Positions 3,959-51,112 of a stretch of DNA of 64,000 nucleotides are shown piece after piece. Numbering within the stretch: the first letter of the stretch is position 1; every line of letters begins with the position of its first letter. The notes beneath the pieces were generated by a model. The model ran no database searches. It saw nothing but the letters and a program-made list of their open reading frames with translations, and had not been told where the DNA came from. Origin of the DNA: Paludibacteraceae bacterium (GTDB lineage Bacteria > Bacteroidota > Bacteroidia > Bacteroidales > Paludibacteraceae); assembly GCA_045577965.1 (NCBI GenBank), contig JAZNJI010000002.1, positions 4,323-68,322 on the forward strand, written 5' to 3'. Made by a program: the position numbers and the translations under genes.

Positions 3959-3993
3959 ATACACAGGAAATTGATGAGAAAATAAAGGTGCAG

Positions 3994-4062
3994 TTTCTGC
4001 GGTTATTGCGGTTTTAGCGGTTTTTGGAAAACCGCAATAACCGCAGAAACCGCTAAAACCGC
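3994..4062. terminator. long hairpin immediately after the DUF3987-like gene
   Basis: tttctgcggttattgcggtttt (3994-4015) pairs with aaaaccgcaataaccgcagaaa (4028-4049). An alternative pairing is gcggttttagcgg/ccgctaaaaccgc. Confidence 0.7.
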
Positions 4063-9195: not shown

Positions 9196-9296
9196 GACGG
9201 CACAAAATGCCTACAGGACGCTTGCGAGCGAGCTATAGGACGCGCTGATGGCGCTATAGGTTAAAGGTTAAAGGTTAGAGGCAAAAGGCGAGAGGC
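9172..9296. repeat. word-array / mini-hairpin repeat (includes the last codons of ddl)
   Basis: gaggacgccgcagagcggctatag gacggcacaaaatgcc tacag gacgcttgcgagcgagc tatag gacgcgctgatggcgc tatagg ttaaaggttaaaggttagaggcaaaaggcgagagg. Confidence 0.85.
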
Positions 9297-29641: not shown

Positions 29642-30166
29642 ATGGCACTTATTGTTCCTGTACGCGGATTTACCCCGCAAATAGGCAAGGATTGCTTTCT
29701 GGCTGAGAATGCAACTATCGTTGGTGACACCGTCATCGGCGATGGTTGCTCCATTTGGTTCAACGCCGTTTTGCGCGGTGATGTCAATTGGATCAAGATT
29801 GGCAACCACGTGAATATCCAAGACGGCTCCGTCTTGCACACCCTCTACGAGAAAAGCACCATCACTATTGGTGACTATGTGTCGGTAGGACACAACGTCA
29901 CTATCCACGGCGCAGATGTACATGACTACGCACTCATCGGTATGGGCTCAACCCTGCTTGACGGCGTGGTAGTTGGCGAAGGTGCGATCGTAGCAGCAGG
30001 TTCGTTGGTACTGAAAAACACACAAATTGGCCCATACGAAGTATGGGGCGGTGTGCCAGCCAAATTCATCAAGAAGGCGGATCCTGAACAAACCAACGAG
30101 ATCAATCGCAAGATAGCGCACAACTATGCGATGTACGCTTCTTGGTACAAAAACGACGAGGAATAA
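29642..30166 (+). CDS. gamma-carbonic-anhydrase / hexapeptide-repeat family protein
   Basis: Left-handed beta-helix repeats and the N terminus P.IGKDCFLAENATIVGDV.IG..CSIWFNAVLRGD are present. Confidence 0.85.
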   Translation: MALIVPVRGFTPQIGKDCFLAENATIVGDTVIGDGCSIWFNAVLRGDVNWIKIGNHVNIQDGSVLHTLYEKSTITIGDYVSVGHNVTIHGADVHDYALIGMGSTLLDGVVVGEGAIVAAGSLVLKNTQIGPYEVWGGVPAKFIKKADPEQTNEINRKIAHNYAMYASWYKNDEE

Positions 30167-30176
30167 ATACATTGGT

Positions 30177-31055
30177 ATGAAAAAGAATGCATTATTGCTG
30201 ATCCTGATCGCATGCGTATCCCTAGTATATGCGCAGACTCATATACATGTATGGGTCAATGGTGTGGAGACCTCTTTTCCTATTGCCAGCGTAGATAGTA
30301 TCACCTTTAATAGCGCAGAACCAGATTATTCTCATGGCATAGGCACTTTCTCTGTGAGTGATACTAGCCAAGTGACTTTCTCCAAAGGTAACCTACAGTA
30401 TCATCCCAAGAACGATGAATGGCGTTTTGCTGAGCAACAAACAGATTATGTGGGTAATGCCAACACAAACATCTCACCGACCTACGACGGATGGATCGAC
30501 CTGTTTGGCAAGGGCACAGGTGATAATCCCACATGTTGCTCCAATGTTCATGCCGACTATTATACCAGTGTAGAATGGGGTGTCAATGCGATTGGCGAAG
30601 ATGCTCCTAACACATGGCGCACGCTTACTTATGCAGAGTGGCAATACCTGCTCGACTTGCGCAACAACGCTAGCGAGTTGCGCGGTGTGGCACAAGTGAA
30701 TGGCGTGAATGGCATGGTCTTTTTGCCAGATGATTGGGTATGTCCTAGCGACATCACTTTCAAGGCGGGTTACCACGCTAGTTGGGGAAAGGCCAACTAT
30801 GCTGCCTATCAAACCATCACCGCTGATCAGTGGAATAAAATGCAAGAAGCTGGCGCTATCTTTTTACCAGCGGCAGGCTATAGAGGCGAAAAGAAAGTAA
30901 TTGATTTACAAGATATTGGTCGCTATTGGTCAGCCACAAATGATCCATATTCGGATTTCATGGCAGGCTATATCACCATGTATTCGGATGATGCATTCAT
31001 GATGTACAGCATGCGCTACTATGGCATGTCAGTACGTTTGGTGAAAGATTTATAA
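30177..31055 (+). CDS. secreted protein with FISUMP-like (Fibrobacter paralogous) domain
   Basis: Signal peptide MKKNALLLILIACVSLVYAQ. WRTLTYAEWQYLL, LPAAGYRG, YWSAT and the terminal SVRLVKD resemble the TIGR02145-type domain as I recall it. Confidence 0.5.
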   Translation: MKKNALLLILIACVSLVYAQTHIHVWVNGVETSFPIASVDSITFNSAEPDYSHGIGTFSVSDTSQVTFSKGNLQYHPKNDEWRFAEQQTDYVGNANTNISPTYDGWIDLFGKGTGDNPTCCSNVHADYYTSVEWGVNAIGEDAPNTWRTLTYAEWQYLLDLRNNASELRGVAQVNGVNGMVFLPDDWVCPSDITFKAGYHASWGKANYAAYQTITADQWNKMQEAGAIFLPAAGYRGEKKVIDLQDIGRYWSATNDPYSDFMAGYITMYSDDAFMMYSMRYYGMSVRLVKDL

Positions 31056-32188
31056 ATCGTAGCGATCAGTTCATGCCATGCCAGATCGGGAAACAATTTG
31101 CCCATCTGCCAGGCGTCAAACAGCAATCTACATGCAGTATATCCGACCTGCAACACACGATGTCGTTCAGGTCGCTCCCATGGAAATCGCCTCATCAGGG
31201 CGATTTCTTGTATATTTAGTTTAGCTGGTCGCGCGCCATGTCCATCGCGCAGTAGTTGGCGCAATAGTCGCTCGGCACGGCCTTTGTACTTAGTCGTATA
31301 TAGCGGCATAGCCTCAGCCGGCAAATGCAACTGATCCACCATCACATACCCAAAGGTCTGCCAAGCTGTCTTCATATGCAGCGCCTGCAATATGCAGTCT
31401 ATCTCTTGGCACAACGCTTGCCAATCCTCCACCGACAATTGCTCATGCGCCTTGTGGAGAGCTAGTGCCCAATCGGCTAACGGACGAAAGCCCACACCCG
31501 TACTCTCGAAGTGATGCCATGCGTGCATAAACACATACAAGGCGTTGTAGGCTGCACTAGGCACAGGCAATTCCACCCCCTTCCATGCCACACTACTCCT
31601 TCCTACTCTACTGCTACTCCCCAAATACTTATGGGTAAAGGCCTGATAGAGTGCATCGGCTTTCTTATCACGAAACTCCATGGTCACGCGGTGCAGTTCC
31701 ACCACGCGATCTAGATTCTCATCGATCACCAAGATATAATGTATTCCTCCGTAAGTCGCTGAATGCCAATGTGCATCGGGGTAAGCAGCGGTCACAATCT
31801 CTGCCGCGCGCAAGTAGTTCTCTTCGCCCACATAGATATCCACATCGCCGAAGTCGCGCATGTCGGCATCGGGGTAGAGGGCGGATAGACTATATCCTTT
31901 GATCAGGGTCGAGGGTATATCGTGCTTCGCGAGCAATGTGATCACGTCGGCCGCCAAATGATTCAGCCGAGCAGTTCGTCCCATCACCGCGAAGATGGCA
32001 GGTTGCAGTTTCTTGTCGAAAGGAGTAACGATCTTGTGAGATTTAGTCCACATGCTAAAGGCGTGCAGACATTTTTGGCGTGCTGCCAAGTTCAGCACCC
32101 CTCGCCAGTCGGTGTCAGCAGGCACTTCCACCGTCGTGCCCCACATCACCGAGCGTAATATCGAGAAAAATATCTGAGCTTGTTTCAT
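31019..32188 (-). CDS. nucleotidyltransferase family protein (NTP_transf_5-like)
   Basis: The GDVDIYV...VELHRV pattern fits a pol-beta-fold NTase. It is the last gene of the kinase-peptidase-PqqD operon. The track start at 32242 lies inside a word array, so M19 was chosen. Confidence 0.65.
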   Translation of the reverse strand: MKQAQIFFSILRSVMWGTTVEVPADTDWRGVLNLAARQKCLHAFSMWTKSHKIVTPFDKKLQPAIFAVMGRTARLNHLAADVITLLAKHDIPSTLIKGYSLSALYPDADMRDFGDVDIYVGEENYLRAAEIVTAAYPDAHWHSATYGGIHYILVIDENLDRVVELHRVTMEFRDKKADALYQAFTHKYLGSSSRVGRSSVAWKGVELPVPSAAYNALYVFMHAWHHFESTGVGFRPLADWALALHKAHEQLSVEDWQALCQEIDCILQALHMKTAWQTFGYVMVDQLHLPAEAMPLYTTKYKGRAERLLRQLLRDGHGARPAKLNIQEIALMRRFPWERPERHRVLQVGYTACRLLFDAWQMGKLFPDLAWHELIATIYKSFTKRTDMP

Positions 32189-32211
32189 ATCTGTATCCGG
32201 TCTCCCGACTT

Positions 32212-32300
32212 CCCATATTAGGCGAAGCCGTCCAATACCCATTAGGCGGAACGCCGTCCATTACCCATTAGGCGAAGCCGTCCAATAGCGAAGCGTCCAC
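32212..32300. repeat. word-array / mini-hairpin repeat
   Basis: attaggcgaagccgtccaataccc attaggcggaacgccgtccattaccc attaggcgaagccgtccaatagc gaagcgtcc. Confidence 0.85.
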
Positions 32301-32566
32301 TAAACAATAATCCCCACTTCCTTCCAATCCTCGATGGTAGCTTGTGCATCTTTGCGAGCGATCTCTTCGCTCACCTCATACTCTGCTAGTAGGAGTTGGG
32401 TGAGGGTTTCCACATCAAACTCCTTGCCCTCAACCTGCTGCCACAGGTATGCGGCTGCCTCGTTGAAGGTGATGAGATTATTGAAATTCACGAGTTCGGC
32501 GCTCTCGCCAATCAGTATATAATCGCCGCCTAATTCGCGCAGGCGAAATCCCTCCTTAGTCTTCAT
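32300..32566 (-). CDS. PqqD-family protein (RiPP recognition element-like)
   Basis: 88 aa. ITFNEAAAYLWQQVEGKEFDVETLTQLLLAEYEVSEEIARKDAQATIEDWKEVGII fits the PqqD pattern. Confidence 0.75.
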   Translation of the reverse strand: MKTKEGFRLRELGGDYILIGESAELVNFNNLITFNEAAAYLWQQVEGKEFDVETLTQLLLAEYEVSEEIARKDAQATIEDWKEVGIIV

Positions 32567-32996
32567 ATTTCATTGATTGTAAGACAACTACTACACGATG
32601 TATCTTCAGATACAATCGCTTGATAAATGTTGGTAAATGACGCCAGACACATCCGCTAGTTACACGTTTGCGTTTGCCTATCACTTTTATTTGTACCACA
32701 CGTCCGATAATATCGTTGGCCGTACAAGTCTCCGAGCCTTTCAGGTTGCCATCACCACGAAGGATGATCTCCTCACCCTTGATCTTGTAGATACGGTGCA
32801 GTACGAAGGATTTTCCCACTCTGGCGAGTACGATCATTCCCACTTGTGGATCATTACATGTCTTGAGAATCACCTTATCACGACCTCCCTCGATGAAAGG
32901 TCGCATACTCACTCCTCGTGGACTAAACTCCACCATATGGCCCTCTTTGAGCAATCGCTCAAACTCTGGCATCAATATATCATTGCTTTTCTTCAT
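32556..32996 (-). CDS. S24/S26-family peptidase, SipW/ER-type signal-peptidase-like
   Basis: GVSMRPF (Ser box), VLHRIY and LRGDGN boxes are present. 11-nt overlap with the PqqD gene. Confidence 0.65.
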   Translation of the reverse strand: MKKSNDILMPEFERLLKEGHMVEFSPRGVSMRPFIEGGRDKVILKTCNDPQVGMIVLARVGKSFVLHRIYKIKGEEIILRGDGNLKGSETCTANDIIGRVVQIKVIGKRKRVTSGCVWRHLPTFIKRLYLKIHRVVVVLQSMKYED

Positions 32997-33000
32997 AATC

Positions 33001-33168
33001 TTGTTGTAGCGCTGTGTAGCGGTTGTGTAGTAGCGCTGCGCGCTGTGTAGCAGTTGTGTAGGGTTGTGTAGCAGTTGTTATTCTAGGATTCCATCCTATA
33101 CCACTCTATACCACCCTATACCATGCTATACCATCCTACACCATCCTATACCATCCTACACCATCCCC
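33001..33168. repeat. inverted word arrays (gtgtag words, then ctatacc/ctacacc words) with hairpin agcgctgcgcgct
   Basis: A C-poor half (33001-33090) is followed by a G-free half (33095-33168), between the kinase and peptidase genes. Confidence 0.85.
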
Positions 33169-34202
33169 CTCTGGGCGACCTCTGCCGCCTCCACATTCGG
33201 CAGACAGTCCAGATGATAGCATTTCACATGCGTGATCACGTGCTTGATGCTCTCGTACATGCAGTCGGCCATCTGTCGGTCCATTTTCAGTCCCGACGCC
33301 GATGACAGCATATACGCATATGCCTCTGGCAGTGAGAGGATTCGCATCTTATTATGCGGTGCCTGACTCAGTTTGATGATTCCTCCTACGCGTGCGCACG
33401 CATTCTTGTAGCAAGGTGTCTTGCCGCTCCATGGCGAACCATAGACGCGCACTTCACCGTCCTCCATCACGCGCAAGATTGGATTGTCGTCGTTGAGCAG
33501 CCATGCGTCATCGAAGGCCGCCAACCACTGCCGCGCATGCGTGGACTTACCCGTCCCGCTATGCCCCAAAAACAAGTACCCTTTCGCCTCGTCCCTCACC
33601 ACCACCGCAGCGTGCATCTCTAGGGTCATCAGTGGGGCGGTGCGGAAAGCAAATAGCAGCATCAGCGCATTGTCGATGCAGAACCTAACATCCTGACAAT
33701 CAGGCATTATGTATAGCACACCTTCCGTAAAATTCTCACTACATTCCATCTCGCAGCAGATAGGCGCGTTGGCCACCATCGCCACGCGGAACAACCAAGT
33801 GTGTGGTATAGGGTTGTTTAGGGTTGTATAGGATTGTGAAGAGTGGTACACTTCGATCCTAGGCATATCTTCCTCTGCATTATCGGTCAGCACATGGGTC
33901 CACTCCTCGCCTATTTGCCTTTCGCCTTTCGCCTCTTCCATTTCCACGCTGAGCGTGAAGATAGGAGTTGAATGCTTCTCGCATTCCATATCTTTGTCGC
34001 GGCAGGGAGTTCTTATCTCACTTTCGTTCGAACGATCTGCTTCGCCGTACGATTGCCGCGAAATGTTGTCTATATTGTCGTTGTTATTTATCTCCACGGC
34101 AAATGGCAGATAATTCGTCATACATGACAACAGCGCACCGTCGCTGCATTCCACAGCGAACAGATGCTCCGCTACGCGGTAGTATGTACGACTAAACGCC
34201 AT
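33156..34202 (-). CDS. HPr-kinase-like P-loop kinase (HprK-related)
   Basis: YLFLGHSGTGKSTHARQW P-loop within an HprK C-terminal-like fold. The start MAFSRTYYRV lies 21 nt after a TACTTTTG box. It contains two in-frame word arrays. Confidence 0.7.
   Translation of the reverse strand: MAFSRTYYRVAEHLFAVECSDGALLSCMTNYLPFAVEINNNDNIDNISRQSYGEADRSNESEIRTPCRDKDMECEKHSTPIFTLSVEMEEAKGERQIGEEWTHVLTDNAEEDMPRIEVYHSSQSYTTLNNPIPHTWLFRVAMVANAPICCEMECSENFTEGVLYIMPDCQDVRFCIDNALMLLFAFRTAPLMTLEMHAAVVVRDEAKGYLFLGHSGTGKSTHARQWLAAFDDAWLLNDDNPILRVMEDGEVRVYGSPWSGKTPCYKNACARVGGIIKLSQAPHNKMRILSLPEAYAYMLSSASGLKMDRQMADCMYESIKHVITHVKCYHLDCLPNVEAAEVAQRGMV
33801..33850 (-). repeat. in-frame word array inside the HprK-like gene
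   Basis: Plus strand gtgtggtatagggttgtttagggttgtataggattgtgaagagtggtaca encodes ..YHSSQSYTTLNNPIPHT.. on the minus strand. Confidence 0.7.
33904..33939 (-). repeat. in-frame word array inside the HprK-like gene
   Basis: Plus strand tcctcgcctatttgcctttcgcctttcgcctcttcc encodes ..EEAKGERQIGEE.. on the minus strand. Confidence 0.65.
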
Positions 34203-34222
34203 TGTGCAGTTGAAATTTTCTG

Positions 34223-34230
34223 CAAAAGTA
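34223..34230 (-). promoter_or_regulatory. -7 box TACTTTTG for the kinase-peptidase-PqqD-NTase operon
   Basis: 21 nt before ATG 34202. No room for an upstream ORF. Confidence 0.7.
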
Positions 34231-34334: not shown

Positions 34335-35828
34335 ATGACTGCGAAAGTACTACATACGCTCATCTCTAATGGCGAACGTGCCAATTTAGAGTGCAAGAGA
34401 GCGCAGCGGAGTATCCCTAATTCGATTTGGGAAACCTATTCTGCTTTCGCCAACACGTATGGTGGCACTATTTTATTGGGCATTGAAGAGAACTTACAAG
34501 AGACAGAACTCGCAAAACGCTTTTCGGTCGGTGGTGTGGAAGATGCGCATAAAATTTGCGCTGACTTTTGGAATATTATTAATAGCAAGGAGAAAGTCAA
34601 CTGCAATATCCTCCAAGACAGCGATGTGCAGATTATAGATGTGGCTGACAAGCAGATTGTTAAAATCTCTGTTCCACAAGCCAGTTACTCAGTCCGTCCT
34701 ATATACATTAATAATAACCTCACAAGAGGTACTTTCAAACGCAACCACGAGGGCGACTACCACTGCTCGGAGCAAGAAATCAAACTCATGTTGCGCGATT
34801 CGAACGAGGGAGGAAACGACCGTGCTATCTTGGAGCATTACACGATGAACGATATAGACATCCCTTCATTGGAGCGTTATCGTATGTTGTTTAATATAAA
34901 CAACCCTGAGCATGTCTGGAAAGATTTGAGTCATCAAGAATTTCTCATGCAGTTGGGTGGATATGCTCAAGACCGCGCGACTGGCATAGAGGGATTGACT
35001 ATTGCAGGATTGCTTATGTTTGGCCAAGGACTGCCTATCCGCGATCGTTTTGATAATCTTCGCATGGATTATATTGATAAAACTAATCTCATAGGAGAGC
35101 AGCGATATAGTGACCGATTGACATACGATGGTACTTGGGAGAATAATTTGCTGAATTTTATTCGTATCGTACTACCTCGTTTGACTCGCGACCTGCCCCG
35201 TCCTTTTGCTATGGAGGGCATGGAGCGAAAAGACGACACGCCACAACACAAAGCGGTACGCGAGGCTGTGACCAATGCAATCATTCATGCTGATTTTACG
35301 CTGAATGGCATTTTGAAAATTGAGAAATATGACGACCGTTTCGTCTTGACTAATCCTGGCTTGTTGAAATTGCCATTGGAGCAAATCTACGCTGGTGGTG
35401 AGTCTAAGGCGCGCAATCAACGCATACAATCTATGTTGCGCATGATTGGTTATGGAGAGAACTTAGGTTCGGGCTTCCCGATGATTCTCAATGCTTGGAA
35501 TGAAAAACATTGGCTCAAACCAGTACTTACCGAGCAACCTGAGTTGCTACAAGTCAAGCTGACATTGTTTGTACAAACTGATGATATCCCTCAAGAACCT
35601 ACAGGTAGAAGTACGGTAGAAACTATGGAGAAAAGTTCGGAGAAAAGTTCGGAGAAAATTATAGATATTATAAAACAATCTCCTAAAATTACAGCTAAAG
35701 AAATATCCATAGTTTTAGGTATTTCTAGTAGAGGTGTAGAAAAACAAATTAAAAATCTTCGAGAGCAAGGCATCCTTCGCCGCATAGGCCCTGACAAGGG
35801 TGGACACTGGGAGGTTCAAGAAATCTAA
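34335..35828 (+). CDS. AlbA_2 (Schlafen-like) / HATPase_c_4 protein with C-terminal winged-helix domain
   Basis: N terminus GERANLECKR...FANTYGGTILLGIEE fits the AlbA_2 signature. The C terminus ITAKEISIVLGISSRGVEKQIKNLREQGILRRIG looks like an HTH. Confidence 0.7.
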   Translation: MTAKVLHTLISNGERANLECKRAQRSIPNSIWETYSAFANTYGGTILLGIEENLQETELAKRFSVGGVEDAHKICADFWNIINSKEKVNCNILQDSDVQIIDVADKQIVKISVPQASYSVRPIYINNNLTRGTFKRNHEGDYHCSEQEIKLMLRDSNEGGNDRAILEHYTMNDIDIPSLERYRMLFNINNPEHVWKDLSHQEFLMQLGGYAQDRATGIEGLTIAGLLMFGQGLPIRDRFDNLRMDYIDKTNLIGEQRYSDRLTYDGTWENNLLNFIRIVLPRLTRDLPRPFAMEGMERKDDTPQHKAVREAVTNAIIHADFTLNGILKIEKYDDRFVLTNPGLLKLPLEQIYAGGESKARNQRIQSMLRMIGYGENLGSGFPMILNAWNEKHWLKPVLTEQPELLQVKLTLFVQTDDIPQEPTGRSTVETMEKSSEKSSEKIIDIIKQSPKITAKEISIVLGISSRGVEKQIKNLREQGILRRIGPDKGGHWEVQEI

Positions 35829-36061: not shown

Positions 36062-36213
36062 CCTTTACACCTTACACCCTACACTTTACTCCCTACCTGC
36101 CACCACATTCCATTGGAACCTCATTGGAACCTCATTGGAACCTGATTGGAACCTCACCGAAGGGTTACCGAAGGAACACAAGGAGACATATAGGGGATGT
36201 ATAAGGGATATAA
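36062..36213. repeat. word arrays upstream of the surface-protein gene
   Basis: cctttacaccttacaccctacactttactccc, then cattggaacc x4, ccgaagg x2 and ataggggatgtataagggatataaatag. Confidence 0.8.
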
Positions 36214-36341: not shown

Positions 36342-39300
36342 ATGAAAAAATCAATCTTATTTTTGCTGGCACTATTTAGTGTCACGATGACAACCCAAGC
36401 CGCCGATTATTATTATCGTGGCGAGAAAAATGGTTGGGGGGAAGGTATTAAACTAACCCTATCTACTGATGGAAGTTACTATTATTATGAGGCAACTGCT
36501 GGAACCCATGCTTTTAAGATCATGGAGAATGCTACAGAATGGAGCGCAAAACAATATAGAGGTGAAAATATCAAAAATGGATATAATGGCACAAATGTTA
36601 ATCTAACTGATTTAGGCGGAAGTGATCACAACTGTCAATCTAAAAGTGCATCAAAACATTATATCCTACTTTATTTGGGAAATAATGATAAAACTGCTGT
36701 AGTTTGTGCATCTACCACTCTCCCTACAGGCCTTAACGAAGTTTGGATTAAGCACCCTTGGGGAGGAGGGTCTTGGTCATACAAGCAAGCTACAGATAAT
36801 GGCGATGGTACTTTCTCTCTCTCTGCAAAGTATGGAGAAAGTGGATGTAACCTGAATGCTTATAATGGAGAAAATGCACAATGGTGGTATGGCCTTGCTG
36901 AAATAGAGGTAGAGGCAGGTCTCAATAAAGGTGATGATGCTGTATTTACAGTTGATGCTGTGACTCGTAAAATTTCTGTTACCAAAAAAGTAAGCAAGAA
37001 TCTTGGCGATATCACAATCACTATGAATTGTACTCAACAACCTAAAATATTCTTCTGGGACGTTGAAGGAAAAACTTGTGCAGCATGGCCTGGTGAGGAT
37101 ATGGTTGCAGCAGGTGCAAATACATACACCTATACCTTCGAAGATGTAGATGTTGATCTTGGCGTAAACTACAAGATTAACTTGAAAGAAGTTAACGAAA
37201 ACGAGTGGAATACTGGTGACTTACATACTACAACTGATGTTACCCATGATGTAAGCGATTTGAATATCCCAAAAATCGTGGTATTAGGTGTTAATGGAGA
37301 TTGGGGAAGTACAAATACACTTACAGAACTCTCTAACGACTATTTGACCGTTTCTAAAACTATTTCGGTAGAAGAAGTTAAAACACATGATATTAAAATG
37401 CATGTTGGCAATAATGAATACCAAGGTGGAAATGTGGTTGATATAACACGAGCAAACCCATCTTCGGAAAAGTTTGATCAGAACTATAGTTATGAAAACG
37501 GAAAATTTACCGCTGACATTGCGGGCGACTATGTATTTACGTACACTTATAAAACGCATACTCTCACCGTTACTTATCCAGAGTTACCAACTCCAGAGTA
37601 TAAAGATATTACTGTAACTGTTTACGCAAAAGAGGTTCCAAATATCTGGTGGTGGAATGGTGGCGACCTATGCCCTTCTACTGAAGACATTGTTAATCCT
37701 TCTACGGGAAATAAATATAAATGGGAAGAAGCTCCTGCGATGGAGAAAGTTGCTGGCGAAGACAATTGGTACACCAAGACTTTTGCTCAAGTAGATATTA
37801 CAAAGGGTGGTATTAAGTTCAAATTGCGATCTGCCGACTACAGTACATCTACTACTAACGAGGTTGTTACAACCGAAGATAAGTGCTATGACGCTCGCGT
37901 TATCGCAACCGTAACAGAAACCACATGTGGCGAACTTCCTGATGGTGAGGTTCCAACTGTGACTTACAACGTTACTGTTCCTACTGGAACTCCAGCTTGC
38001 TATATCGCAGGTGCGATGAATGGTTGGTCACACCAAGCAATGACTAAAGTTGATGAGACACACTACACTATCACTATTGAAGGTGCAGAAAAAACACAAG
38101 AATATAAATACTCTGCAAGCAATAATTGGGATTGTGTTGAGCTAAACGAGGATGGTTCTGAGAAATCTAATCGTACCTGGACTGAAAACGACGTAGTAGC
38201 TAAATGGGCTACTCCTGCCGCTCCAGTTCCTACCACCTACACTGTTGCTGGTGATAGCGAAGCTGCTTTTGGCACAACTTGGGATCCTACTAATACTGCT
38301 AATGACATGGCTCTTGACGGTGAACTCTACAAATGGACCAAGACCAATGTAGCTTTATCTGCTAATACTGAAATCAAATTCCAAGTGGTTAAAAATCACG
38401 ATTGGAATCAAGGTCAATGGCCAGGAAATGGCAATGACTGGGTACTGAATACTATTACTGAAGACGGTCTCTACACTATCACTATCACTTTTAAAGAAGA
38501 TGATAAGACAATCAATGCTACAGCCACCAAGACTGGTGATGTCGTTACAAAAGACTTCTCTAACCAACCAGCTACTCTCTACTTCCACCCAAGCTTCCAC
38601 TGGACATCTGATCATGCACAATTTGCTGCATATTTCTATAACAATGGTCCTGGTGCAGATGCTGAGCCAACATGGGCTAATATGACCGATAGTGATGGTG
38701 ATGGCGTTTACGAAGTAGCCAACGCTAAGCAACACGAGTATGTTATCATCTGTCGTATGAACCCAGACCGTACAGAAAACAAGTGGGATGATGATGTAAT
38801 GTGGAACCAAATCGAACATGGTATCACAATTCCTAATACCGCAGGTGATCTCAATACTTGCTTGGCATTCTGGACAAACTGCCAAGGTGATGTTCCTACT
38901 AGCGAGTGCACATGGGTAGCTCCAACTCCTCTCACTGACAAGAACTGGGGTGATTTCATTGCTGCTTACAATGGCAAAACTATTAATGCTGTAGTAGAGC
39001 GCTCATTCAAATCAAGTCAATTGCACACTCTATGCTTGCCATTTGATTTACAAACAAGTTGGCTTGGCGATGGAGCAAAAGCATACCAAATAACAAGTGT
39101 AGTTAGTAGAACAGCAGAAGAGTTAGAACTCAAAACTACTCAATGCAACTCACTACTTGCTGGCCAACCATACATAATCCAGCCTATCAAGGGCGGAGAA
39201 TACGAGCATATCATCGTTTCTGATGTAACAGTAGAAAATGTAACTGCTCAAGATTATACTGTTTCAGGAGGTGATTGCCAAGTAACAATGCAAGCTGTTG

Positions 39301-39593
39301 CAGCTACAGATGGAACAAAAACCGATGGTACTACCGAATATTATATCGGTGCAGAAGATGGTAAATTATACAAAGGAGTTGTTGATAAACTTGGCCTACG
39401 TGCACTCGTTATAATGACTGACACCGAGGGACAACCACTATCTGTTCGCGCTCGCGTAGTAGTTGGTGAGAACGAAGCTACTGGTATTGAAGATCTCTTC
39501 ACTACCGACGCTCCTGTTAAAGTTATTGAGAACGGTCAACTCATCATCATCCGTGGTGGCGAGAAGTTTAACGCACAAGGCGTGCGCCTTTGA
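36342..39593 (+). CDS. large secreted/cell-surface protein with multiple CBM/Ig-like beta-sandwich repeats
   Basis: 1083 aa. Signal peptide MKKSILFLLALFSVTMTTQA. Repeated aromatic-rich modules (e.g. AGAMNGWSHQAMTKVDETHYTITIEG..YKYSASNNWD) resemble starch/glycan-binding modules. Function not assignable. Confidence 0.7.
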   Translation: MKKSILFLLALFSVTMTTQAADYYYRGEKNGWGEGIKLTLSTDGSYYYYEATAGTHAFKIMENATEWSAKQYRGENIKNGYNGTNVNLTDLGGSDHNCQSKSASKHYILLYLGNNDKTAVVCASTTLPTGLNEVWIKHPWGGGSWSYKQATDNGDGTFSLSAKYGESGCNLNAYNGENAQWWYGLAEIEVEAGLNKGDDAVFTVDAVTRKISVTKKVSKNLGDITITMNCTQQPKIFFWDVEGKTCAAWPGEDMVAAGANTYTYTFEDVDVDLGVNYKINLKEVNENEWNTGDLHTTTDVTHDVSDLNIPKIVVLGVNGDWGSTNTLTELSNDYLTVSKTISVEEVKTHDIKMHVGNNEYQGGNVVDITRANPSSEKFDQNYSYENGKFTADIAGDYVFTYTYKTHTLTVTYPELPTPEYKDITVTVYAKEVPNIWWWNGGDLCPSTEDIVNPSTGNKYKWEEAPAMEKVAGEDNWYTKTFAQVDITKGGIKFKLRSADYSTSTTNEVVTTEDKCYDARVIATVTETTCGELPDGEVPTVTYNVTVPTGTPACYIAGAMNGWSHQAMTKVDETHYTITIEGAEKTQEYKYSASNNWDCVELNEDGSEKSNRTWTENDVVAKWATPAAPVPTTYTVAGDSEAAFGTTWDPTNTANDMALDGELYKWTKTNVALSANTEIKFQVVKNHDWNQGQWPGNGNDWVLNTITEDGLYTITITFKEDDKTINATATKTGDVVTKDFSNQPATLYFHPSFHWTSDHAQFAAYFYNNGPGADAEPTWANMTDSDGDGVYEVANAKQHEYVIICRMNPDRTENKWDDDVMWNQIEHGITIPNTAGDLNTCLAFWTNCQGDVPTSECTWVAPTPLTDKNWGDFIAAYNGKTINAVVERSFKSSQLHTLCLPFDLQTSWLGDGAKAYQITSVVSRTAEELELKTTQCNSLLAGQPYIIQPIKGGEYEHIIVSDVTVENVTAQDYTVSGGDCQVTMQAVAATDGTKTDGTTEYYIGAEDGKLYKGVVDKLGLRALVIMTDTEGQPLSVRARVVVGENEATGIEDLFTTDAPVKVIENGQLIIIRGGEKFNAQGVRL

Positions 39594-39696
39594 TAGTTAT
39601 AAACTATGAGTGATAAGTGATGAGGCAAGAATTGCGGCGCAAGCCGCATTCTCCCCGCCTTTACACTTTACACCTTACACTTTACACTATACACTA
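39594..39696. repeat. word-array / mini-hairpin repeat
   Basis: gtgataagtgatgagg, the hairpin gaattgcggcgcaagccgcattc, then cctttacactttacaccttacactttacactatacac. Confidence 0.8.
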
Positions 39697-39714: not shown

Positions 39715-39837
39715 ATGAAAAAAGTATATATCGCGCCTCAAACAGAGGCAATTGAGCTCCTAGGAGAAAACGCCATCATGGTAGGCAGTTCCCTAATTAT
39801 TGGATCTGGCGAAGGTGATGGTGGCGGCATGGGCTAA
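39715..39837 (+). CDS. possible 40-aa peptide with Gly-rich C terminus
   Basis: MKKVYIAPQTEAIELLGENAIMVGSSLIIGSGEGDGGGMG. It lies between a hairpin after the surface-protein gene and the first conserved cassette hairpin. No TAnnTTTG box lies in front of it. Confidence 0.3.
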   Translation: MKKVYIAPQTEAIELLGENAIMVGSSLIIGSGEGDGGGMG

Positions 39838-40361: not shown

Positions 40362-40652
40362 ATGCCTAAAGTTCTACAGTATATTACTGCTTATTTTACT
40401 TGGGTTTTTCTCTTCTACGGAACAGATGTCAACGAGAATCGTGCTCATGTACATGTCGGTAAACGTGGCGTAGATAAATTTTGTAAAATTTGGTTAGAAC
40501 CGTTTATTAGTATCGCGGATGCTGGCGATTTAACTCTATCGCAACAAAAGCAAGTTTTACAAATTGTTGAGGAGCAACAAGATAAACTATTGAAGCAATG
40601 GGCATTATTCAAAGAGGGGAAACCTATTAAAATGTTAACCATTAAACGCTAA
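40362..40652 (+). CDS. DUF4160-like protein
   Basis: 96 aa. The N terminus with the NENRAHVHVGKRG His-rich block resembles DUF4160. It is paired with a DUF2442-like gene 7 nt downstream. Confidence 0.55.
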   Translation: MPKVLQYITAYFTWVFLFYGTDVNENRAHVHVGKRGVDKFCKIWLEPFISIADAGDLTLSQQKQVLQIVEEQQDKLLKQWALFKEGKPIKMLTIKR

Positions 40653-40659
40653 TATAACT

Positions 40660-40923
40660 ATGTGTAAAGTAGAAGGATATTGGAATATTACTCCAAAAAT
40701 CAAATGTGTATCTTTCCCTATCCGTGGAAAGATGTCTGTAAAGTTGGAAGATGGTCGTGTGATTATTGTTCCTCTTTCTTCGTTTCCATCCATAAAAAAG
40801 GTTCCTGTCAAGGACCGCTCTAAATGGTATTTAATGGGCGGTGGAGTGACATGGGATAGTTGTCCTGAAGTTATTCATATTGAGCAGATATTAGGTAATT
40901 ATCAGAATTATCAACACGAGTAA
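40660..40923 (+). CDS. DUF2442-like protein
   Basis: 87 aa. VKLEDGRVIIVPLSSFPSIKKVPVKDRSKWYLMGGGVTWDSCPEVIHIEQIL fits the DUF2442 pattern as I recall it. Confidence 0.6.
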   Translation: MCKVEGYWNITPKIKCVSFPIRGKMSVKLEDGRVIIVPLSSFPSIKKVPVKDRSKWYLMGGGVTWDSCPEVIHIEQILGNYQNYQHE

Positions 40924-40985
40924 AAACTGCGTTTCTCCACGCAATCACAAAAACCTGTGCACACCACAGATCTTATAACCCCATC

Positions 40986-41016
40986 CCACAACCGCTCACT
41001 CTGGGCGGTTGTGGTG
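40986..41016 (+). repeat. conserved cassette hairpin, copy 3
   Basis: ccacaaccgc-tcactctgg-gcggttgtggtg, followed by tttttagga. Confidence 0.85.
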
Positions 41017-41090
41017 TTTTTAGGAGTAGCACTTTGTGAAATAATAGGCACTTATTTTATATAACACTTGCATATTTCATTTTTTTTCTG

Positions 41091-41098
41091 TACTTTTG
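41091..41098 (+). promoter_or_regulatory. -7 box TACTTTTG, cassette 3
   Basis: Preceded by cttgcatatttcatttttttt, 30 nt before ATG 41128. Confidence 0.7.
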
Positions 41099-41127
41099 CA
41101 CGGATTTTGTAGATTAATTATTAGACT

Positions 41128-41343
41128 ATGAATACACAAACATTAAACTTTACCATATTCTGTATTGGTAATGTAGCAGAATATCTCAAGATAAATGCCC
41201 GCGATGTATATCATAAAATGCAACAAGCGGACATGATATCTTCTTATATCGTGCCATGCTACGATGTCCTACATTCATTCTCTAAAGAATATATCGTCGA
41301 GGATCTTGTTAACCACATGAAGCAGAAAGGAGTATTACAATGA
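41128..41343 (+). CDS. DUF3791-like small protein
   Basis: 71 aa. It overlaps the downstream DUF3990-like gene by 4 nt, and a paralogous small ORF follows that gene. Confidence 0.5.
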   Translation: MNTQTLNFTIFCIGNVAEYLKINARDVYHKMQQADMISSYIVPCYDVLHSFSKEYIVEDLVNHMKQKGVLQ

Positions 41344-41813
41344 TTACTCTTTATCACACATCCAATCAAGAAGTGCCACAACCTGATGTTCTGCATTCTA
41401 GACAGCACCTCGACTTCGGACGAGGTTTCTACCTAACACCTATCTACGAACAAGCTAAGAAATATGGCGAACGCTTCTTACGCAAAGGCGAAGAAGCATA
41501 CATCAATGTGTATGAACTCGACGAAGATTTAACTGGCTTTACCAAAAAAGTATTTGAGCAATACGACAATCAATGGTTGGATTTTGTTACTGCTTGCAGA
41601 AAAGGACATGACCATCCTCACTATGACATTATAGAAGGAGGTATTGCAGATGACCAAGTGTTCAACACTATAGATTTGTATTTTGCAGGAATATACACTT
41701 ATGAACAAGCCCTTGATCAACTGCGCTACAAGAAACCCAATCATCAGATGTGTATAACAAATGCTAATCTTCTAAAAGAGAAATTACATTTTATTGAATC
41801 GATCAAACTTTAA
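41340..41813 (+). CDS. DUF3990-like protein with PARP/ART-like H-Y-E signature
   Basis: 157 aa. LYHTS (His), GRGFYLT (Tyr) and DIIEGGIADD (Glu) occur in the order and spacing typical of H-Y-E ADP-ribosyltransferases. Confidence 0.55.
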   Translation: MITLYHTSNQEVPQPDVLHSRQHLDFGRGFYLTPIYEQAKKYGERFLRKGEEAYINVYELDEDLTGFTKKVFEQYDNQWLDFVTACRKGHDHPHYDIIEGGIADDQVFNTIDLYFAGIYTYEQALDQLRYKKPNHQMCITNANLLKEKLHFIESIKL

Positions 41814-41818
41814 CTACT

Positions 41819-42028
41819 ATGGAAGCTAATCCGATTATTCTTCAACAGAAATACGCACGTATTGTACAATTGTTCGCAAATAAAGCCGGTTATTCATATG
41901 AGCAAGCGTTGGGAATGTTCTACGACTCCAAAACTTTTGAATTAATCAGCGAAGGAGTAGCTGATATGCATTGCCTAAGCGATGAATACCTCGCTGACGA
42001 ACTCTGCATTGAATATAATATCCACTAG
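41819..42028 (+). CDS. DUF3791-like small protein (second copy)
   Basis: 69 aa. It begins 5 nt after the DUF3990-like gene and is followed by conserved hairpin copy 4. Confidence 0.5.
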   Translation: MEANPIILQQKYARIVQLFANKAGYSYEQALGMFYDSKTFELISEGVADMHCLSDEYLADELCIEYNIH

Positions 42029-43638: not shown

Positions 43639-43642
43639 GCTT

Positions 43643-43716
43643 GGTGTAGAATGGTATAGGATAGTATAGAAGTGGTATAGGATGGTATAGAATAGTATAG
43701 AAGTGGTATAGGATGG
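43643..43716. repeat. C-free word array upstream of four-helix-bundle gene 1
   Basis: ggtgtagaatggtataggatagtatagaagtggtataggatggtatagaatagtatagaagtggtataggatgg. Confidence 0.9.
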
Positions 43717-44117
43717 TTGGATTTGCTACGAAAATAGAAGATTTGAGGATATGGCAAAATGCTCGTACTATCAGTAAAGCTATATACAGCCTCACTTACC
43801 ATGATAACTTTGAGAAAGATTATCGCTTTGTACAACAAATTCGCGCCGCTGCAGGATCTATAATGGATAATATTGCAGAAGGATTCGGAAGAAGTGGAAG
43901 CAAAGAATTTATACAATTTCTTTATATTGCAAGAGGCTCTTGCCAAGAAGTTATTAGCCAACTATACCGTGCATGGGATATTCAATATATTTCTGAGGAA
44001 GAATTCACAGAAACTAAAAAACAGGTCGAGACAACTTCTGTTATGATTTATAACCTAATAGATAATCTCAAGCAATCAGAAAACAAAGGTCCCAAGTACA
44101 GCCCTACACCCCACTAA
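43713..44117 (+). CDS. four-helix-bundle protein (23S rRNA IVS protein / Avd-like family)
   Basis: IEDLRIWQNA...FVQQIRAAAGSIMDNIAEGFGRSGSKEFIQFLYIARGSCQEV is the family signature. A paralog lies at 62361-62762. Confidence 0.8.
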   Translation: MVGFATKIEDLRIWQNARTISKAIYSLTYHDNFEKDYRFVQQIRAAAGSIMDNIAEGFGRSGSKEFIQFLYIARGSCQEVISQLYRAWDIQYISEEEFTETKKQVETTSVMIYNLIDNLKQSENKGPKYSPTPH

Positions 44118-44251
44118 ACCACCCTATACAACCCTACACAGCGCGAAGCGCTACTAAACAACCCTATACAATACTACACAGCGCAAAGCGCTACTAAACA
44201 ACCCTAAACAACCCTACACAACCCTATACAACCCTATACAACCCTATACAA
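44103..44251. repeat. G-free word array with two GCGAAGC-type mini-hairpins downstream of four-helix-bundle gene 1
   Basis: ccctataca/ccctacaca words plus agcgcgaagcgct and agcgcaaagcgct. It runs up to the frr ATG. Confidence 0.9.
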
Positions 44252-46126: not shown

Positions 46127-47119
46127 ATGCGAGGACTAGTTATAAAATCTACTGGTACGAGTTACGGCGTACACTTCGAGGACGGAACAACCGCCGAATG
46201 TCATGTCAAGGGCAATTTCCGCATTCGTGGTATTCGCTCTACTAACCCTATTGCCATAGGCGACCATGTTGAGGTGACGCAACTAGAGGACGGTACCAAT
46301 TGGATCACCGAACTATACGACCGCAAAAACTACATCATCCGCCGCTCCACCAACCTGAGCTATGCCTCACATATCATAGCAGCCAATGTAGATATGGCGG
46401 CATTGATCGTCACACTCCGTCACCCCGAGACATCAACCACCTTTATTGATCGCTTCCTAGCGACCTGCGAAGCTTATCGCGTGCCCGCGTGCATAATATT
46501 TAATAAGGTGGATCTGCTCACCGAAGATGAACTGGAGCAACTATCTACCCTCCGCCAATTATACGAGTCATTGGGCTATCCTACCTACGCTATCTCTGCA
46601 ATAACCCTCACTTCTTCGCCTGATAGCCCAATCGCCCAATCGCCTAATCACCTCATCTCTGCCATCTTTGATGGCAAAGTTACTCTCCTCTCTGGCAATT
46701 CTGGCGTAGGAAAATCTACCCTTTTGAACGCCATTTTAGGCAAAGATGTTGCTCGAACAGGCGCCATCTCCTCTGCCCACCACAAGGGTATGCACACCAC
46801 CACCTTCTCCGAGATGTACCCGCTACACAACACTACACAACACTACACAACACTACACAACACTACCCCACATTCCTGGCTCATCGACACCCCAGGCATC
46901 AAGGGATTTGGTCTGCTAGACATTGAAAAAGAGGAAGTAGGGCACTATTTCCGAGAGATTTTTGAGGTAGCACGCGAATGCCGCTACTCCAACTGCTTGC
47001 ACACGGGCGAGCCTGGATGTGCGGTATATCAAGCAGTGGTAGATGGCAAGATCGCCCTCTCACGCTACGAGAGTTACCTCAGTATCCTAGACGACACCAA
47101 CGAAGGGAAGTATCGTTGA
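46127..47119 (+). CDS. rsgA: ribosome small-subunit-dependent GTPase A
   Basis: OB-fold N terminus, NKVDL, GNSGVGKSTLLNAI, DTPG and Zn knuckle CRYSNCLHTGEPGCAV are present. It contains two in-frame word arrays. Confidence 0.88.
   Translation: MRGLVIKSTGTSYGVHFEDGTTAECHVKGNFRIRGIRSTNPIAIGDHVEVTQLEDGTNWITELYDRKNYIIRRSTNLSYASHIIAANVDMAALIVTLRHPETSTTFIDRFLATCEAYRVPACIIFNKVDLLTEDELEQLSTLRQLYESLGYPTYAISAITLTSSPDSPIAQSPNHLISAIFDGKVTLLSGNSGVGKSTLLNAILGKDVARTGAISSAHHKGMHTTTFSEMYPLHNTTQHYTTLHNTTPHSWLIDTPGIKGFGLLDIEKEEVGHYFREIFEVARECRYSNCLHTGEPGCAVYQAVVDGKIALSRYESYLSILDDTNEGKYR
46614..46652 (+). repeat. in-frame word array inside rsgA
   Basis: cttcgcctgatagcccaatcgcccaatcgcctaatcacc encodes SSPDSPIAQSPNH. 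Confidence 0.7.
46823..46869 (+). repeat. in-frame 10-nt-period word array inside rsgA
   Basis: The unit ctacacaaca is repeated 4 times, followed by ctacccc. It encodes LHNTTQHYTTLHNTTP between the conserved HTTT..E and IDTPG blocks. Confidence 0.85.
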
Positions 47120-49263: not shown

Positions 49264-49440
49264 TCGCTGAGCGACGTAAATGGCGGCAAAGCCGCGAAAA
49301 TGGTCTTCGACGAAAATGGCACCTCTGGTACGAAAATGGTCTTCGACGTAAATTACGTGAAACCACTTTCGTGAGCAAAGCGAGCCACTTTCATGAACGA
49401 AGTGAATCACTTTCGTGAGCGATAGCGAACCATTTAACAT
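49264..49440. repeat. word-array / hairpin repeat downstream of recA
   Basis: The palindrome gtcgctgagcgac, (g)aaaatgg words and cactttcgtgagc..agcga units are present. It is related to 29451-29640. Confidence 0.85.
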
Positions 49441-51031: not shown

Positions 51032-51112
51032 CCACCCTACGCAACACAACACTACACTATACTACCCTACACTACACTATACTACACCACACTACACAAT
51101 ACTACACAACCC
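51030..51112. repeat. G-free word array forming the tcdA leader
   Basis: accaccctacgcaacacaacactacactatactaccctacactacactatactacaccacactacacaatactacacaaccc. Confidence 0.9.

Follow-up and report, generated by a model that had tools for sequence, protein, structure and literature searches.

A Bacteroidales operon as the probable counterpart of the linear polyphosphorylated peptide pathway of Bacillota, with a candidate precursor encoded in trans

In a stretch of 64,000 nucleotides (nt) from a Paludibacteraceae bacterium (GenBank assembly GCA_045577965.1, contig JAZNJI010000002.1, positions 4,323 to 68,322; hereafter, the window), we studied an operon that occupies positions 31019-34202 of the minus strand. 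Read as open reading frames (ORFs), it consists of four intact head-to-tail genes in the order kinase, peptidase, RRE and NTase (K-S-B-N), which encode a P-loop kinase with the HprK/PEPCK fold, a soluble Ser/His/Asp peptidase of the SipW type, an 88-aa protein of the PqqD/RRE type (RRE, recognition element of RiPPs, peptides that are synthesized ribosomally and modified post-translationally) and an NTP_transf_5 nucleotidyltransferase (NTase). We regard it as probable (roughly 0.7) that this operon is the Bacteroidales counterpart of the RiPP pathway for linear polyphosphorylated peptides (LPPs) and that the small gene at 39715-39837 encodes its precursor. A preliminary description of the same DNA had proposed a new pathway. 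Because the LPP system, already described and partly characterized (PMC13381572), has an identical set of five enzyme families, together with a precursor that carries a YxxP leader, the operon appears, as judged from sequence, to be a variant of a known system and not a wholly new pathway. With its probable substrate gene in the same window, it would not be an orphan either.

LPPs were described from Bacillota, with the lpp cluster LppA/K/B/S/D/N of Paenibacillus alginolyticus DSM5050 (Popov et al., Nat Commun 2026, PMC13381572). Its enzymes include the SipW-like archaeal-type signal peptidase LppS, the discrete RRE LppB and the HprK-like kinase LppK, and lpp clusters also encode the NTP transferase LppN, the MsbA-like exporter LppD and precursors with YxxP leaders and variable C-termini (PMC13381572). 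LppK adds up to four phosphates to core Ser3, the leader is removed by LppS, which cleaves the unphosphorylated precursor poorly, and deletion of LppN caused no detectable change (PMC13381572). The domain table of the same paper lists PqqD, NTP_transf_5, TIGR02228, TIGR02203 and TIGR04249 as the recurrent models of lpp clusters (PMC13381572), and these five models were the best or only matches for the proteins of the window and for the exporter of its relatives. The LPP sequences used for direct comparison were taken from its supplementary data (PMC13381572).

The families to which the preliminary description had assigned the four proteins were correct, as indicated by Pfam matches past the cut-offs for the RRE and the NTase, and by alignments together with AlphaFold2 (AF2) models and Foldseek searches for the kinase and the peptidase. 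The LppB-like RRE (32300-32566, minus strand), an 88-aa protein of the PqqD fold whose gene overlaps that of the peptidase by 11 nt, matched PF05402 (PqqD) above the cut-off (E 1.5e-14). It aligned with LppB at 23% identity (E 1e-3), with N35 and D73, both invariant in 32 RRE sequences, corresponding to N33 and D70. In LppB, D70 grips Tyr-16 of the leader and N33 the kink at Pro-13 (PMC13381572). When the RRE profile was searched against the PDB, the best match was the lasso RRE TfuB1 (E 1e-5), and PbaB1 (9x90) was found, whereas LppB (9x8z) was not retrieved. The window RRE also aligned over its full length, with 36% identity (E 4e-17), with an RRE from Dehalobacter whose partner is an SpI (cluster 4 of the sequence similarity network, SSN).

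The LppN-like NTase was assigned by Pfam and by a family alignment, and its gene lies at 31019-32188 of the minus strand, the ATG at 32188 being favored by the alignment over the ORF start at 32242. It matched PF14907 with an E value of 3.3e-27, scoring 96 bits where the cut-off is 31, and keeps the pol-beta-type motifs K-G, D-x-D, E-x-H and H-x3-H (K98-G99, D116/D118, E165/H167 and H223/H227 in the coordinates of the first aligned sequence). No PDB relative of the NTase was found by sequence, either with the single sequence or with profile searches. At its 3' end the gene shares 37 nt (31019-31055) with the 3' end of a convergent FISUMP-domain gene (30126-31055).

Profile support for the peptidase and the kinase was sub-threshold, and both assignments were therefore tested further by alignment and fold. 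The predicted LppS-like leader peptidase (32556-32996, minus strand) had sigpep_I_arch TIGR02228 as its best NCBIfam match (E 5.7e-7) and also matched Peptidase_S24 (E 1.4e-4), both below cut-off. Invariant across 33 sequences are the boxes G-x-S30-M-x-P, H67-R and G-D82-G-N, a Ser/His/Asp pattern of the SipW/Sec11 type and not the Ser/Lys of LexA. An AF2 model, built with kinase::peptidase fusion proteins as alignment (predicted local distance difference test, pLDDT, 91), retrieved in Foldseek LexA/UmuD as well as two signal peptidases, SpsB and SipA. Moreover, BLASTP aligned the window peptidase with LppS (26% identity, E 1e-8), placing S30/H67/D82 on S29/H68/D93, which agrees with the earlier suggestion that a signal-peptidase-like enzyme takes the place of the usual leader protease. 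In the Paenibacillus system, the substitutions S29A, H68A or D93A inactivate LppS, and its cleavage requires LppB (PMC13381572). The N-terminus of the window peptidase, MKKSNDILMPEFERLLKEGH, has no hydrophobic segment and no membrane anchor, residues 4-17 being modeled as an amphipathic helix. Presumably the enzyme acts in the cytoplasm and depends on the RRE; by analogy with LppS, the dependence on the RRE that had been proposed before would thus hold.

Profiles, alignment and Foldseek place the LppK-like kinase (33156-34202, minus strand) in the ScmC family, as a P-loop protein with two domains and the HprK/PEPCK fold. Translation from the ATG at 34202 yields exactly the 348-aa protein of NCBI, which makes the longer TTG ORF to 34253 unnecessary. 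Its profile matches were to ScmC TIGR04249 (E 1.7e-3), PEPCK (3.5e-4) and HprK_rel_A (0.066), all below the curated cut-offs (for TIGR04249 and TIGR04352, 17.7 and 12.3 bits against equivalog cut-offs of 125 and 200 bits). No match to Pfam Hpr_kinase (Hpr_kinase_C) was found at E<=0.1, and the likeness to HprK/P is at the level of the fold only. Homologs of the kinase carry the precomputed Pfam annotation PF27840 'ScmC'. An alignment of 30 sequences revealed as invariant a His, the P-loop G-x-S-G-x-G-K-S-T-H, L-L-N-D-D-x-P and G-x-P-W-S-G, and the window kinase retains H197, G-H-S-G-T-G-K-S-T (213-221), D238-D239 and P257-W-S-G-K-T. In the PDB, the kinase-family profile matched PEPCK over its His/P-loop segment, and the AF2 model (pLDDT 88) gave in Foldseek ATP-dependent PEPCK (E ~5e-6) and HprK/P (E ~6e-5). 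Searches of the PDB with the kinase, the NTase and the peptidase as single sequences yielded nothing useful. Within the kinase gene, an in-frame word array of period 10 (33806-33837, minus strand) encodes an insertion of about 12 residues, 'SQSYTTLNNPIP', which is absent from most aligned homologs and where the pLDDT block is just 72. Kinase lengths vary from about 290 to 420 aa, P0127 having a far longer insertion at the same site, and residues ~41-80 form a second low-confidence insertion that is particular to the clade of the window.

The kinase family is represented by at least 7949 matches among 90%-identity clusters and by 6452 matches at E<=1e-3 among 50%-identity representatives, and its members are encoded on at least 587 stretches of GTDB species-representative genomes, the best 80 of which belong nearly all to Bacteroidales, plus one Fibrobacter metagenome-assembled genome. 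In 81 loci, ORFs were called and searched with the four window proteins, and all neighbors were clustered. Kinase, peptidase and RRE were found together in 57 of the 81 loci, and the NTase in 20. The four genes therefore recur as a cassette in relatives, contrary to the possibility, raised in the preliminary description, that they do not co-occur elsewhere. Since dozens of species share the same gene order, the arrangement of the operon is not due to chance. Fourteen of the 150 best representatives of the kinase family are kinase::peptidase fusions (433-515 aa; P0137, P0143, P0145, P0146, P0149, P0155, P0162, P0168, P0172, P0190, P0192, P0194, P0201 and P0207).

The operon had also been characterized as an orphan with no transporter in sight, and as a cluster with no cyclase, B2 protease or ABC exporter. 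For the window the absences are accurate: no Asn-synthase-like, transglutaminase-like or ABC-exporter protein was found among its large ORFs. As a picture of the system, however, an orphan with no transporter is misleading, because an ABC exporter is the fifth conserved gene, present in 39 of the 81 loci, and the commonest fourth gene among relatives. This exporter is a half-transporter of 530-560 aa (ABC_membrane plus ABC_tran) with MsbA as best NCBIfam match, and its gene usually lies directly after that of the RRE. The order K-S-B-ABC was found in 27 loci and K-S-B-N in 9-10, whereas five loci (L038, L050, L069, L078 and L081) combine the core with both NTase and exporter. Among the 14 annotated of the 30 most frequent listed neighbor families, none was Asn-synthase-like or B2-like. 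The genes that flank the cassette vary by clade and are mostly housekeeping genes.

Reduced and altered arrangements were also seen. In five loci of the Paludibacteraceae type (L004, L005, L007, L010 and L025) an NTase gene directly follows a kinase-like gene, with no peptidase or RRE gene, and in ten others (L014-L019, L021, L026, L033 and L034) a kinase-like gene stands alone beside one for a MiaB-like radical SAM protein. Such loci may have their missing partners at other places in the genome; alternatively, they may represent different systems. In one further representative of the kinase family, P0175 (716 aa), LpxB is fused to the kinase-like protein.

A substrate encoded in trans had been suggested, with the product of 39715-39837 as one candidate, and this candidate turned out to belong to a peptide family that adjoins the NTase gene in another clade. 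A screen for conserved small ORFs around the cassettes disclosed this family, which in seven loci (L061, L065, L067, L071, L074, L075 and L096; for example, MKKMNKMYEAPKAELINLDVNKDFMAGGTAGSGIEGGTTWNP) is encoded 106-215 nt downstream of the NTase gene, as its immediate neighbor and in the same orientation. In L035 a member of the family lies upstream of the kinase gene and divergent from it, and weaker candidate matches were found 2-9 kb away in L012, L039 and L049. The candidate precursor of the window, MKKVYIAPQTEAIELLGENAIM / VGSSLIIGSGEGDGGGMG (in full, MKKVYIAPQTEAIELLGENAIMVGSSLIIGSGEGDGGGMG), is a 40-aa, LppA-like peptide encoded on the plus strand at 39715-39837, 5.5 kb from the operon; it was recognized by a motif and hidden Markov model (HMM) scan, alignment and synteny, and the scan showed it to be the sole member of the family in the window. 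In the protein collection the family is represented by at least 768 clusters and the subfamily of the window by 122, and no Pfam or NCBIfam model matched either of them. A search of the PDB with the peptide profile did not retrieve the LppA leader and gave only a chance match to ribosomal protein S10.

In 110 peptides of the window clade, positions 1-22 are almost invariant, with Y5, P8 and M22 absolute; Ser25 is present in 97 of them and Ser24 in the other 13. From position 26 onwards the entropy rises above 2-3 bits, and the tails contain 33% Gly. The candidate precursor is thus laid out as a 22-residue YxxP leader, a Ser at +3 after Met22 and a hypervariable Gly-rich tail. To the extent that sequence can tell, such an anatomy, a conserved YxxP leader followed by a hypervariable core, is that of a RiPP precursor. 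Bacillota LPP precursors resemble the Bacteroidales peptides in this layout, an example being MTKKPYAPPSVLSHQKVSFET|KASGNDNGGGDGGGPGGNFWS (PMC13381572). The homology of the proteins, the conservation of catalytic and binding residues, the co-occurrence and fusion of the genes, and the existence and linkage of the peptide family are all observed.

In the window clade the peptide gene has a constant upstream neighbor, in the window a gene (36342-39593, plus strand) for a large secreted protein of 1083 aa with a weak CBM26 match. Genes of this kind, for secreted proteins of 674-1522 aa that have their last ~210 residues in common, precede the peptide gene in 7 of 7 contexts. The peptide gene begins 90-160 nt after the large gene in the window and in L087, L090, L091, L092, L094 and L095, the weak domain matches of the large proteins being to CBM26, Flg_new_2 or CHB_HEX_C, and the pairing is independent of whether the operon is nearby. 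The order of operon, divergent large secreted-protein gene and peptide gene is common to the window, L087/L088 and L091. In the window, the interval that separates the peptide gene from the large one contains the hairpin TGCGGCGCAAGCCGCA (39633-39648, plus strand), with word arrays on either side, and this hairpin is kept in L087, L090 and L091. In the other clade, a conserved gene of about 330 aa follows the peptide gene; because its product has a lipoprotein-type signal and no counterpart in the window, and because a tRNA follows it, it was rejected as a member of the system. Its product has no Pfam match.

Several points weigh against the identification of the operon as an LPP pathway with this precursor. 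LPPs were declared to be restricted to Bacillota (PMC13381572), and the profile matches of both kinase and peptidase lie under the curated cut-offs. Of the LPP leader consensus, YxxPxVLxHQxIxFETxxS (PMC13381572), the Bacteroidales leader has only YxxP and the Ser, the VLxHQxIxFET part being absent. With cleavage after Met22 the leader Tyr would stand at -18, and not at -16 as in LPPs (PMC13381572). The window has no exporter, a full-length homolog of that of the relatives being absent from its 64 kb. Some 70 of the 81 related loci have no such peptide within 10 kb, and the peptide gene is linked to a large-protein gene in 7 of 7 contexts, against 3 of 7 for the operon within the same distance. 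The LPP model leaves the pairing of the peptide with the large gene unaccounted for, and this pairing is the main lead towards something new. Finally, the RRE is nearer to an uncharacterized group from Clostridia (36%) than to LppB (23%), and the chemistry may therefore differ.

The linkage data bear directly on the possibility that the operon is LPP-like and 39715-39837 is not its substrate. The latter would then be another peptide encoded in trans or the N-terminus of a protein, and the small ORF would be functionally tied to the large secreted-protein gene upstream. In the window clade, the peptide gene always lies behind the large gene, four of the seven contexts have no operon within 10 kb, and most related loci lack a detectable peptide nearby. 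We nevertheless consider this explanation unlikely, because in another clade seven loci encode clearly homologous peptides immediately behind the NTase, on its strand, with an unrelated lipoprotein as the downstream neighbor. Moreover, YxxP is a motif of the kind bound by RREs of this class, and both the entropy pattern of leader and core and the conserved Ser suit a precursor. RiPP precursors encoded apart from their enzymes are known, for example the prochlorosins, which also weighs against it.

A less probable alternative is that the same parts perform another chemistry, in which a PEPCK-like enzyme activates a carboxylate or another group instead of polyphosphorylating serine and, with the NTase, gives a product other than a linear polyphosphopeptide, for example a nucleotidylated or cyclized one. 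The kinase is at least as near to PEPCK as to HprK in profile and fold, with no Hpr_kinase_C match reported, and the NTase has no assigned function even in the characterized LPP system. Gly, Asp and Glu abound in the cores, and a minority of the peptides of the other clade have no Ser just after the boundary (e.g., ...DFMAGG). On the other hand, TIGR04249 recognizes the LPP kinases and the window protein alike, LppK is a proven Ser kinase, and a Ser is present at +3 or +2 in 110 of 110 peptides of the window clade, all of which favors phosphorylation.

It is very improbable that the operon is not a RiPP system at all, but a module acting on a housekeeping or envelope protein with PqqD as a generic adaptor. 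Such a role would suit the location of the cassette amid housekeeping genes (tpiA, pyrH/frr, ftsK, lnt and pheS) in different clades and its very common occurrence in gut and rumen Bacteroidales, unlike that of the sporadic biosynthetic clusters; it does not suit an MsbA-like, dedicated peptide or lipid exporter as the commonest fourth gene, nor an RRE that retains the residues clamping YxxP leaders and a matching peptide family linked to the operon. Hardly credible is a decayed, non-functional remnant of a paeninodin-type lasso cluster from which cyclase, B2 protease and exporter have gone, since, even if kinase, NTase and PqqD-type RRE are accessory genes of lasso clusters and the window has no cyclase or exporter, the four ORFs are intact and keep every family-invariant catalytic residue, the cyclase-less arrangement occurs in at least 57 loci of different species, with nothing Asn-synthase-like among the 14 annotated of the 30 most frequent listed neighbor families, and the dedicated SipW-like peptidase and the kinase fusions argue for a self-sufficient system, so that this explanation was rejected on conservation.

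If the operon is indeed an LPP-type pathway, its working can be outlined by analogy with the Paenibacillus system, from which the order of steps, the polyphosphorylation of serine, the RRE-dependent cleavage and the cleavage site would be carried over. The precursor would be the 40-aa product of 39715-39837, possibly together with paralogs encoded elsewhere in the genome. Its leader would be bound at Y5-x-x-P8 by the 88-aa RRE through Asn35 and Asp73, and the kinase would place one or more phosphates on Ser25, which would be core position 3 if cleavage takes place after Met22. The Ser30/His67/Asp82 peptidase, docked on the complex of RRE and leader, would cut the leader off, and the NTP_transf_5 enzyme would further decorate the phosphopeptide. 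As the clade of the window has no exporter in cis, export, if any, would proceed through a transporter encoded elsewhere.

The layout of the operon departs in part from that given in the preliminary description. Its four tightly packed genes do form a minus-strand run with an 11-nt overlap, but two spacers of 159 nt and ~110 nt separate the others. The spacer between kinase and peptidase genes (32997-33155, 159 nt) is made up of tandem word arrays, as revealed by sequence and repeat analysis, including one of period 10 repeated 7.6 times (33091-33166), whereas in relatives the two genes overlap or stand 0-80 nt apart. The spacer between RRE and NTase genes (32189-32299, ~110 nt) contains an array of period 26 repeated 2.9 times (32217-32287). 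Both long spacers are missing from relatives, in which the genes abut or overlap. As had been stated, the spacers consist of word arrays and the operon contains no small ORF: we found no conserved small ORF in either spacer. A substrate encoded there was considered and rejected, the only ORFs being repeat-derived and on the opposite strand, in spacers that relatives do not have.

The single promoter proposed for the operon has as its basis the Bacteroidetes-type -7 motif TACTTTTG (TAnnTTTG; 34223-34230, minus strand), which is indeed present 20 nt 5' of the kinase ATG, and a pattern search found no second minus-strand copy within the operon. The same search counted 73 occurrences of TAnnTTTG in the window against ~50 expected; the motif alone is therefore weak evidence, its position being the only support for a promoter, which stays putative. 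A defense role for the operon was also considered, and the four proteins had no PADLOC matches.

Between the operon and the large secreted-protein gene, the plus strand (34335-35828) encodes a 497-aa Schlafen/AlbA_2 plus HATPase_c_4 plus wHTH protein that matched a pAgo-associated PADLOC model (E 4e-12) and is absent from the otherwise collinear L087/L088. Right after the peptide gene, a run of short ORFs at 40362-42028 (plus strand) includes DUF4160 and DUF3990 genes and looks like toxin-antitoxin or accessory modules. The cargo that follows the peptide gene varies elsewhere, with DUF3791/DUF3990 in L090, a Zeta toxin in L094 and Kinase-PolyVal in L095, which suggests an insertion hotspot. 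Short-period (5-46 nt) tandem word arrays are found in intergenic regions throughout the window (58 TRF rows; e.g., 3989-4062, 9173-9296, 32217-32287, 33091-33166, 36066-36156, 39659-39695, 43642-43717, 44113-44251, 46823-46866, 49272-49452 and 51026-51107). They often form inverted pairs around a GC hairpin, that at 3989-4062 being TGCGGTTTT x4 followed by AAAACCGCA x4, and look like a genome-wide trait of the source organism.

LPPs were defined only in 2026 and reported as confined to Bacillota, and the enzyme set together with a recognizable precursor family is now found in Bacteroidales. This would extend an LPP-like family to a dominant phylum of gut and rumen, with a kinase present in thousands of metagenomic protein clusters, and it makes hundreds of natural leader and core variants available for study. 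Bacteroidales are also genetically tractable hosts in which the roles of the phosphopeptide and of NTP_transf_5 could be addressed, and the pairing of the precursor gene with that of a large secreted protein offers a new, testable clue to function. A bolder proposal, possible and yet doubtful, is that of a lineage-wide LPP-like system of gut and rumen Bacteroidales in which the genes of hypervariable precursors, scattered over the genome, stand systematically behind those of large secreted surface proteins, with which the peptides work, and the product of the NTase variants differs from the LPPs of Bacillota. If so, the peptides would be attached or co-secreted partners, or strain-specific surface or signaling tags, and not free antibiotics, and the exporterless NTP_transf_5 variants would make a product chemically distinct from Bacillota LPPs.

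Among the known systems that share parts with the operon, the ScmC SynChlorMet and HprK-related kinase A/B systems (TIGR04249 and TIGR04352) have a kinase of the same P-loop superfamily and a partner of the PqqD family. Such cassettes carry radical SAM/SPASM or ATP-grasp partners, whereas the operon has none. SipW/Sec11-type (S26B) signal peptidases resemble the window peptidase in the clan SF fold, the Ser-His(-Asp) set and the SMxP and GDxN boxes, but the latter has no N-terminal transmembrane anchor and stays below the TIGR02228 cut-off. The lasso clusters for paeninodin and pseudomycoidin in Bacillota (PadeK/PsmK, PsmN, B1 RRE and exporter) have in common with the operon the kinase, the NTP_transf_5 enzyme and the discrete PqqD RRE, so that the link drawn earlier to accessory enzymes of the paeninodin type is well founded. 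In these clusters the kinase targets a Ser of the precursor, the leader that the RRE recognizes is of the form [Y/W]xxP, and the genes include one for an ABC exporter. The window, in contrast, has neither an Asn-synthetase-like cyclase nor a transglutaminase-like B2 protease; by analogy with LppS, a serine peptidase would remove the leader, presumably yielding a linear product.

Two uncharacterized clusters of the SSN of the LPP paper (PMC13381572) come close to the operon. The peptidase of cluster 4 (Dehalobacter, Anaerocolumna) shares with that of the window an N-terminal helix and the motifs GxSMxPF and HR. In cluster 8 (Paludibacter, Porphyromonadaceae), SpI-like peptidases from Bacteroidales are paired with an RRE and an ABC exporter (PMC13381572); there a single protein of 743-747 aa combines peptidase and exporter, whereas that of the window type is free or fused to the kinase. 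For both clusters only SpI and RRE were reported, with kinase, NTase and precursor given as 'ND' (Supplementary Data 1, PMC13381572).

The closest likeness is to the lpp clusters, which have the same ScmC-type kinase, discrete PqqD RRE, anchorless SipW-type peptidase and NTP_transf_5 enzyme, with no cyclase, and whose MsbA-like exporter is also carried by relatives of the window locus. The kinases were likened through TIGR04249, through PF27840 on homologs and through fold. The candidate precursors resemble those of LPPs in that a YxxP leader at the N-terminus is followed by a Ser near core position 3 and a variable Gly-rich tail. The differences lie in the phylum, Bacteroidota, and in the low identities (26% between the peptidases and 23% between the RREs), as well as in the short precursors (38-54 aa), often unlinked from the enzymes or located behind large secreted-protein genes. 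In addition, the exporter is optional, and absent in the window clade, the order is K-S-B-N, kinase::peptidase fusions exist, and the cluster is neither within capsule loci nor beside lasso clusters. New with respect to the LPP paper are the phylum, the in-trans precursor genes beside those of large secreted proteins and the optional exporter.

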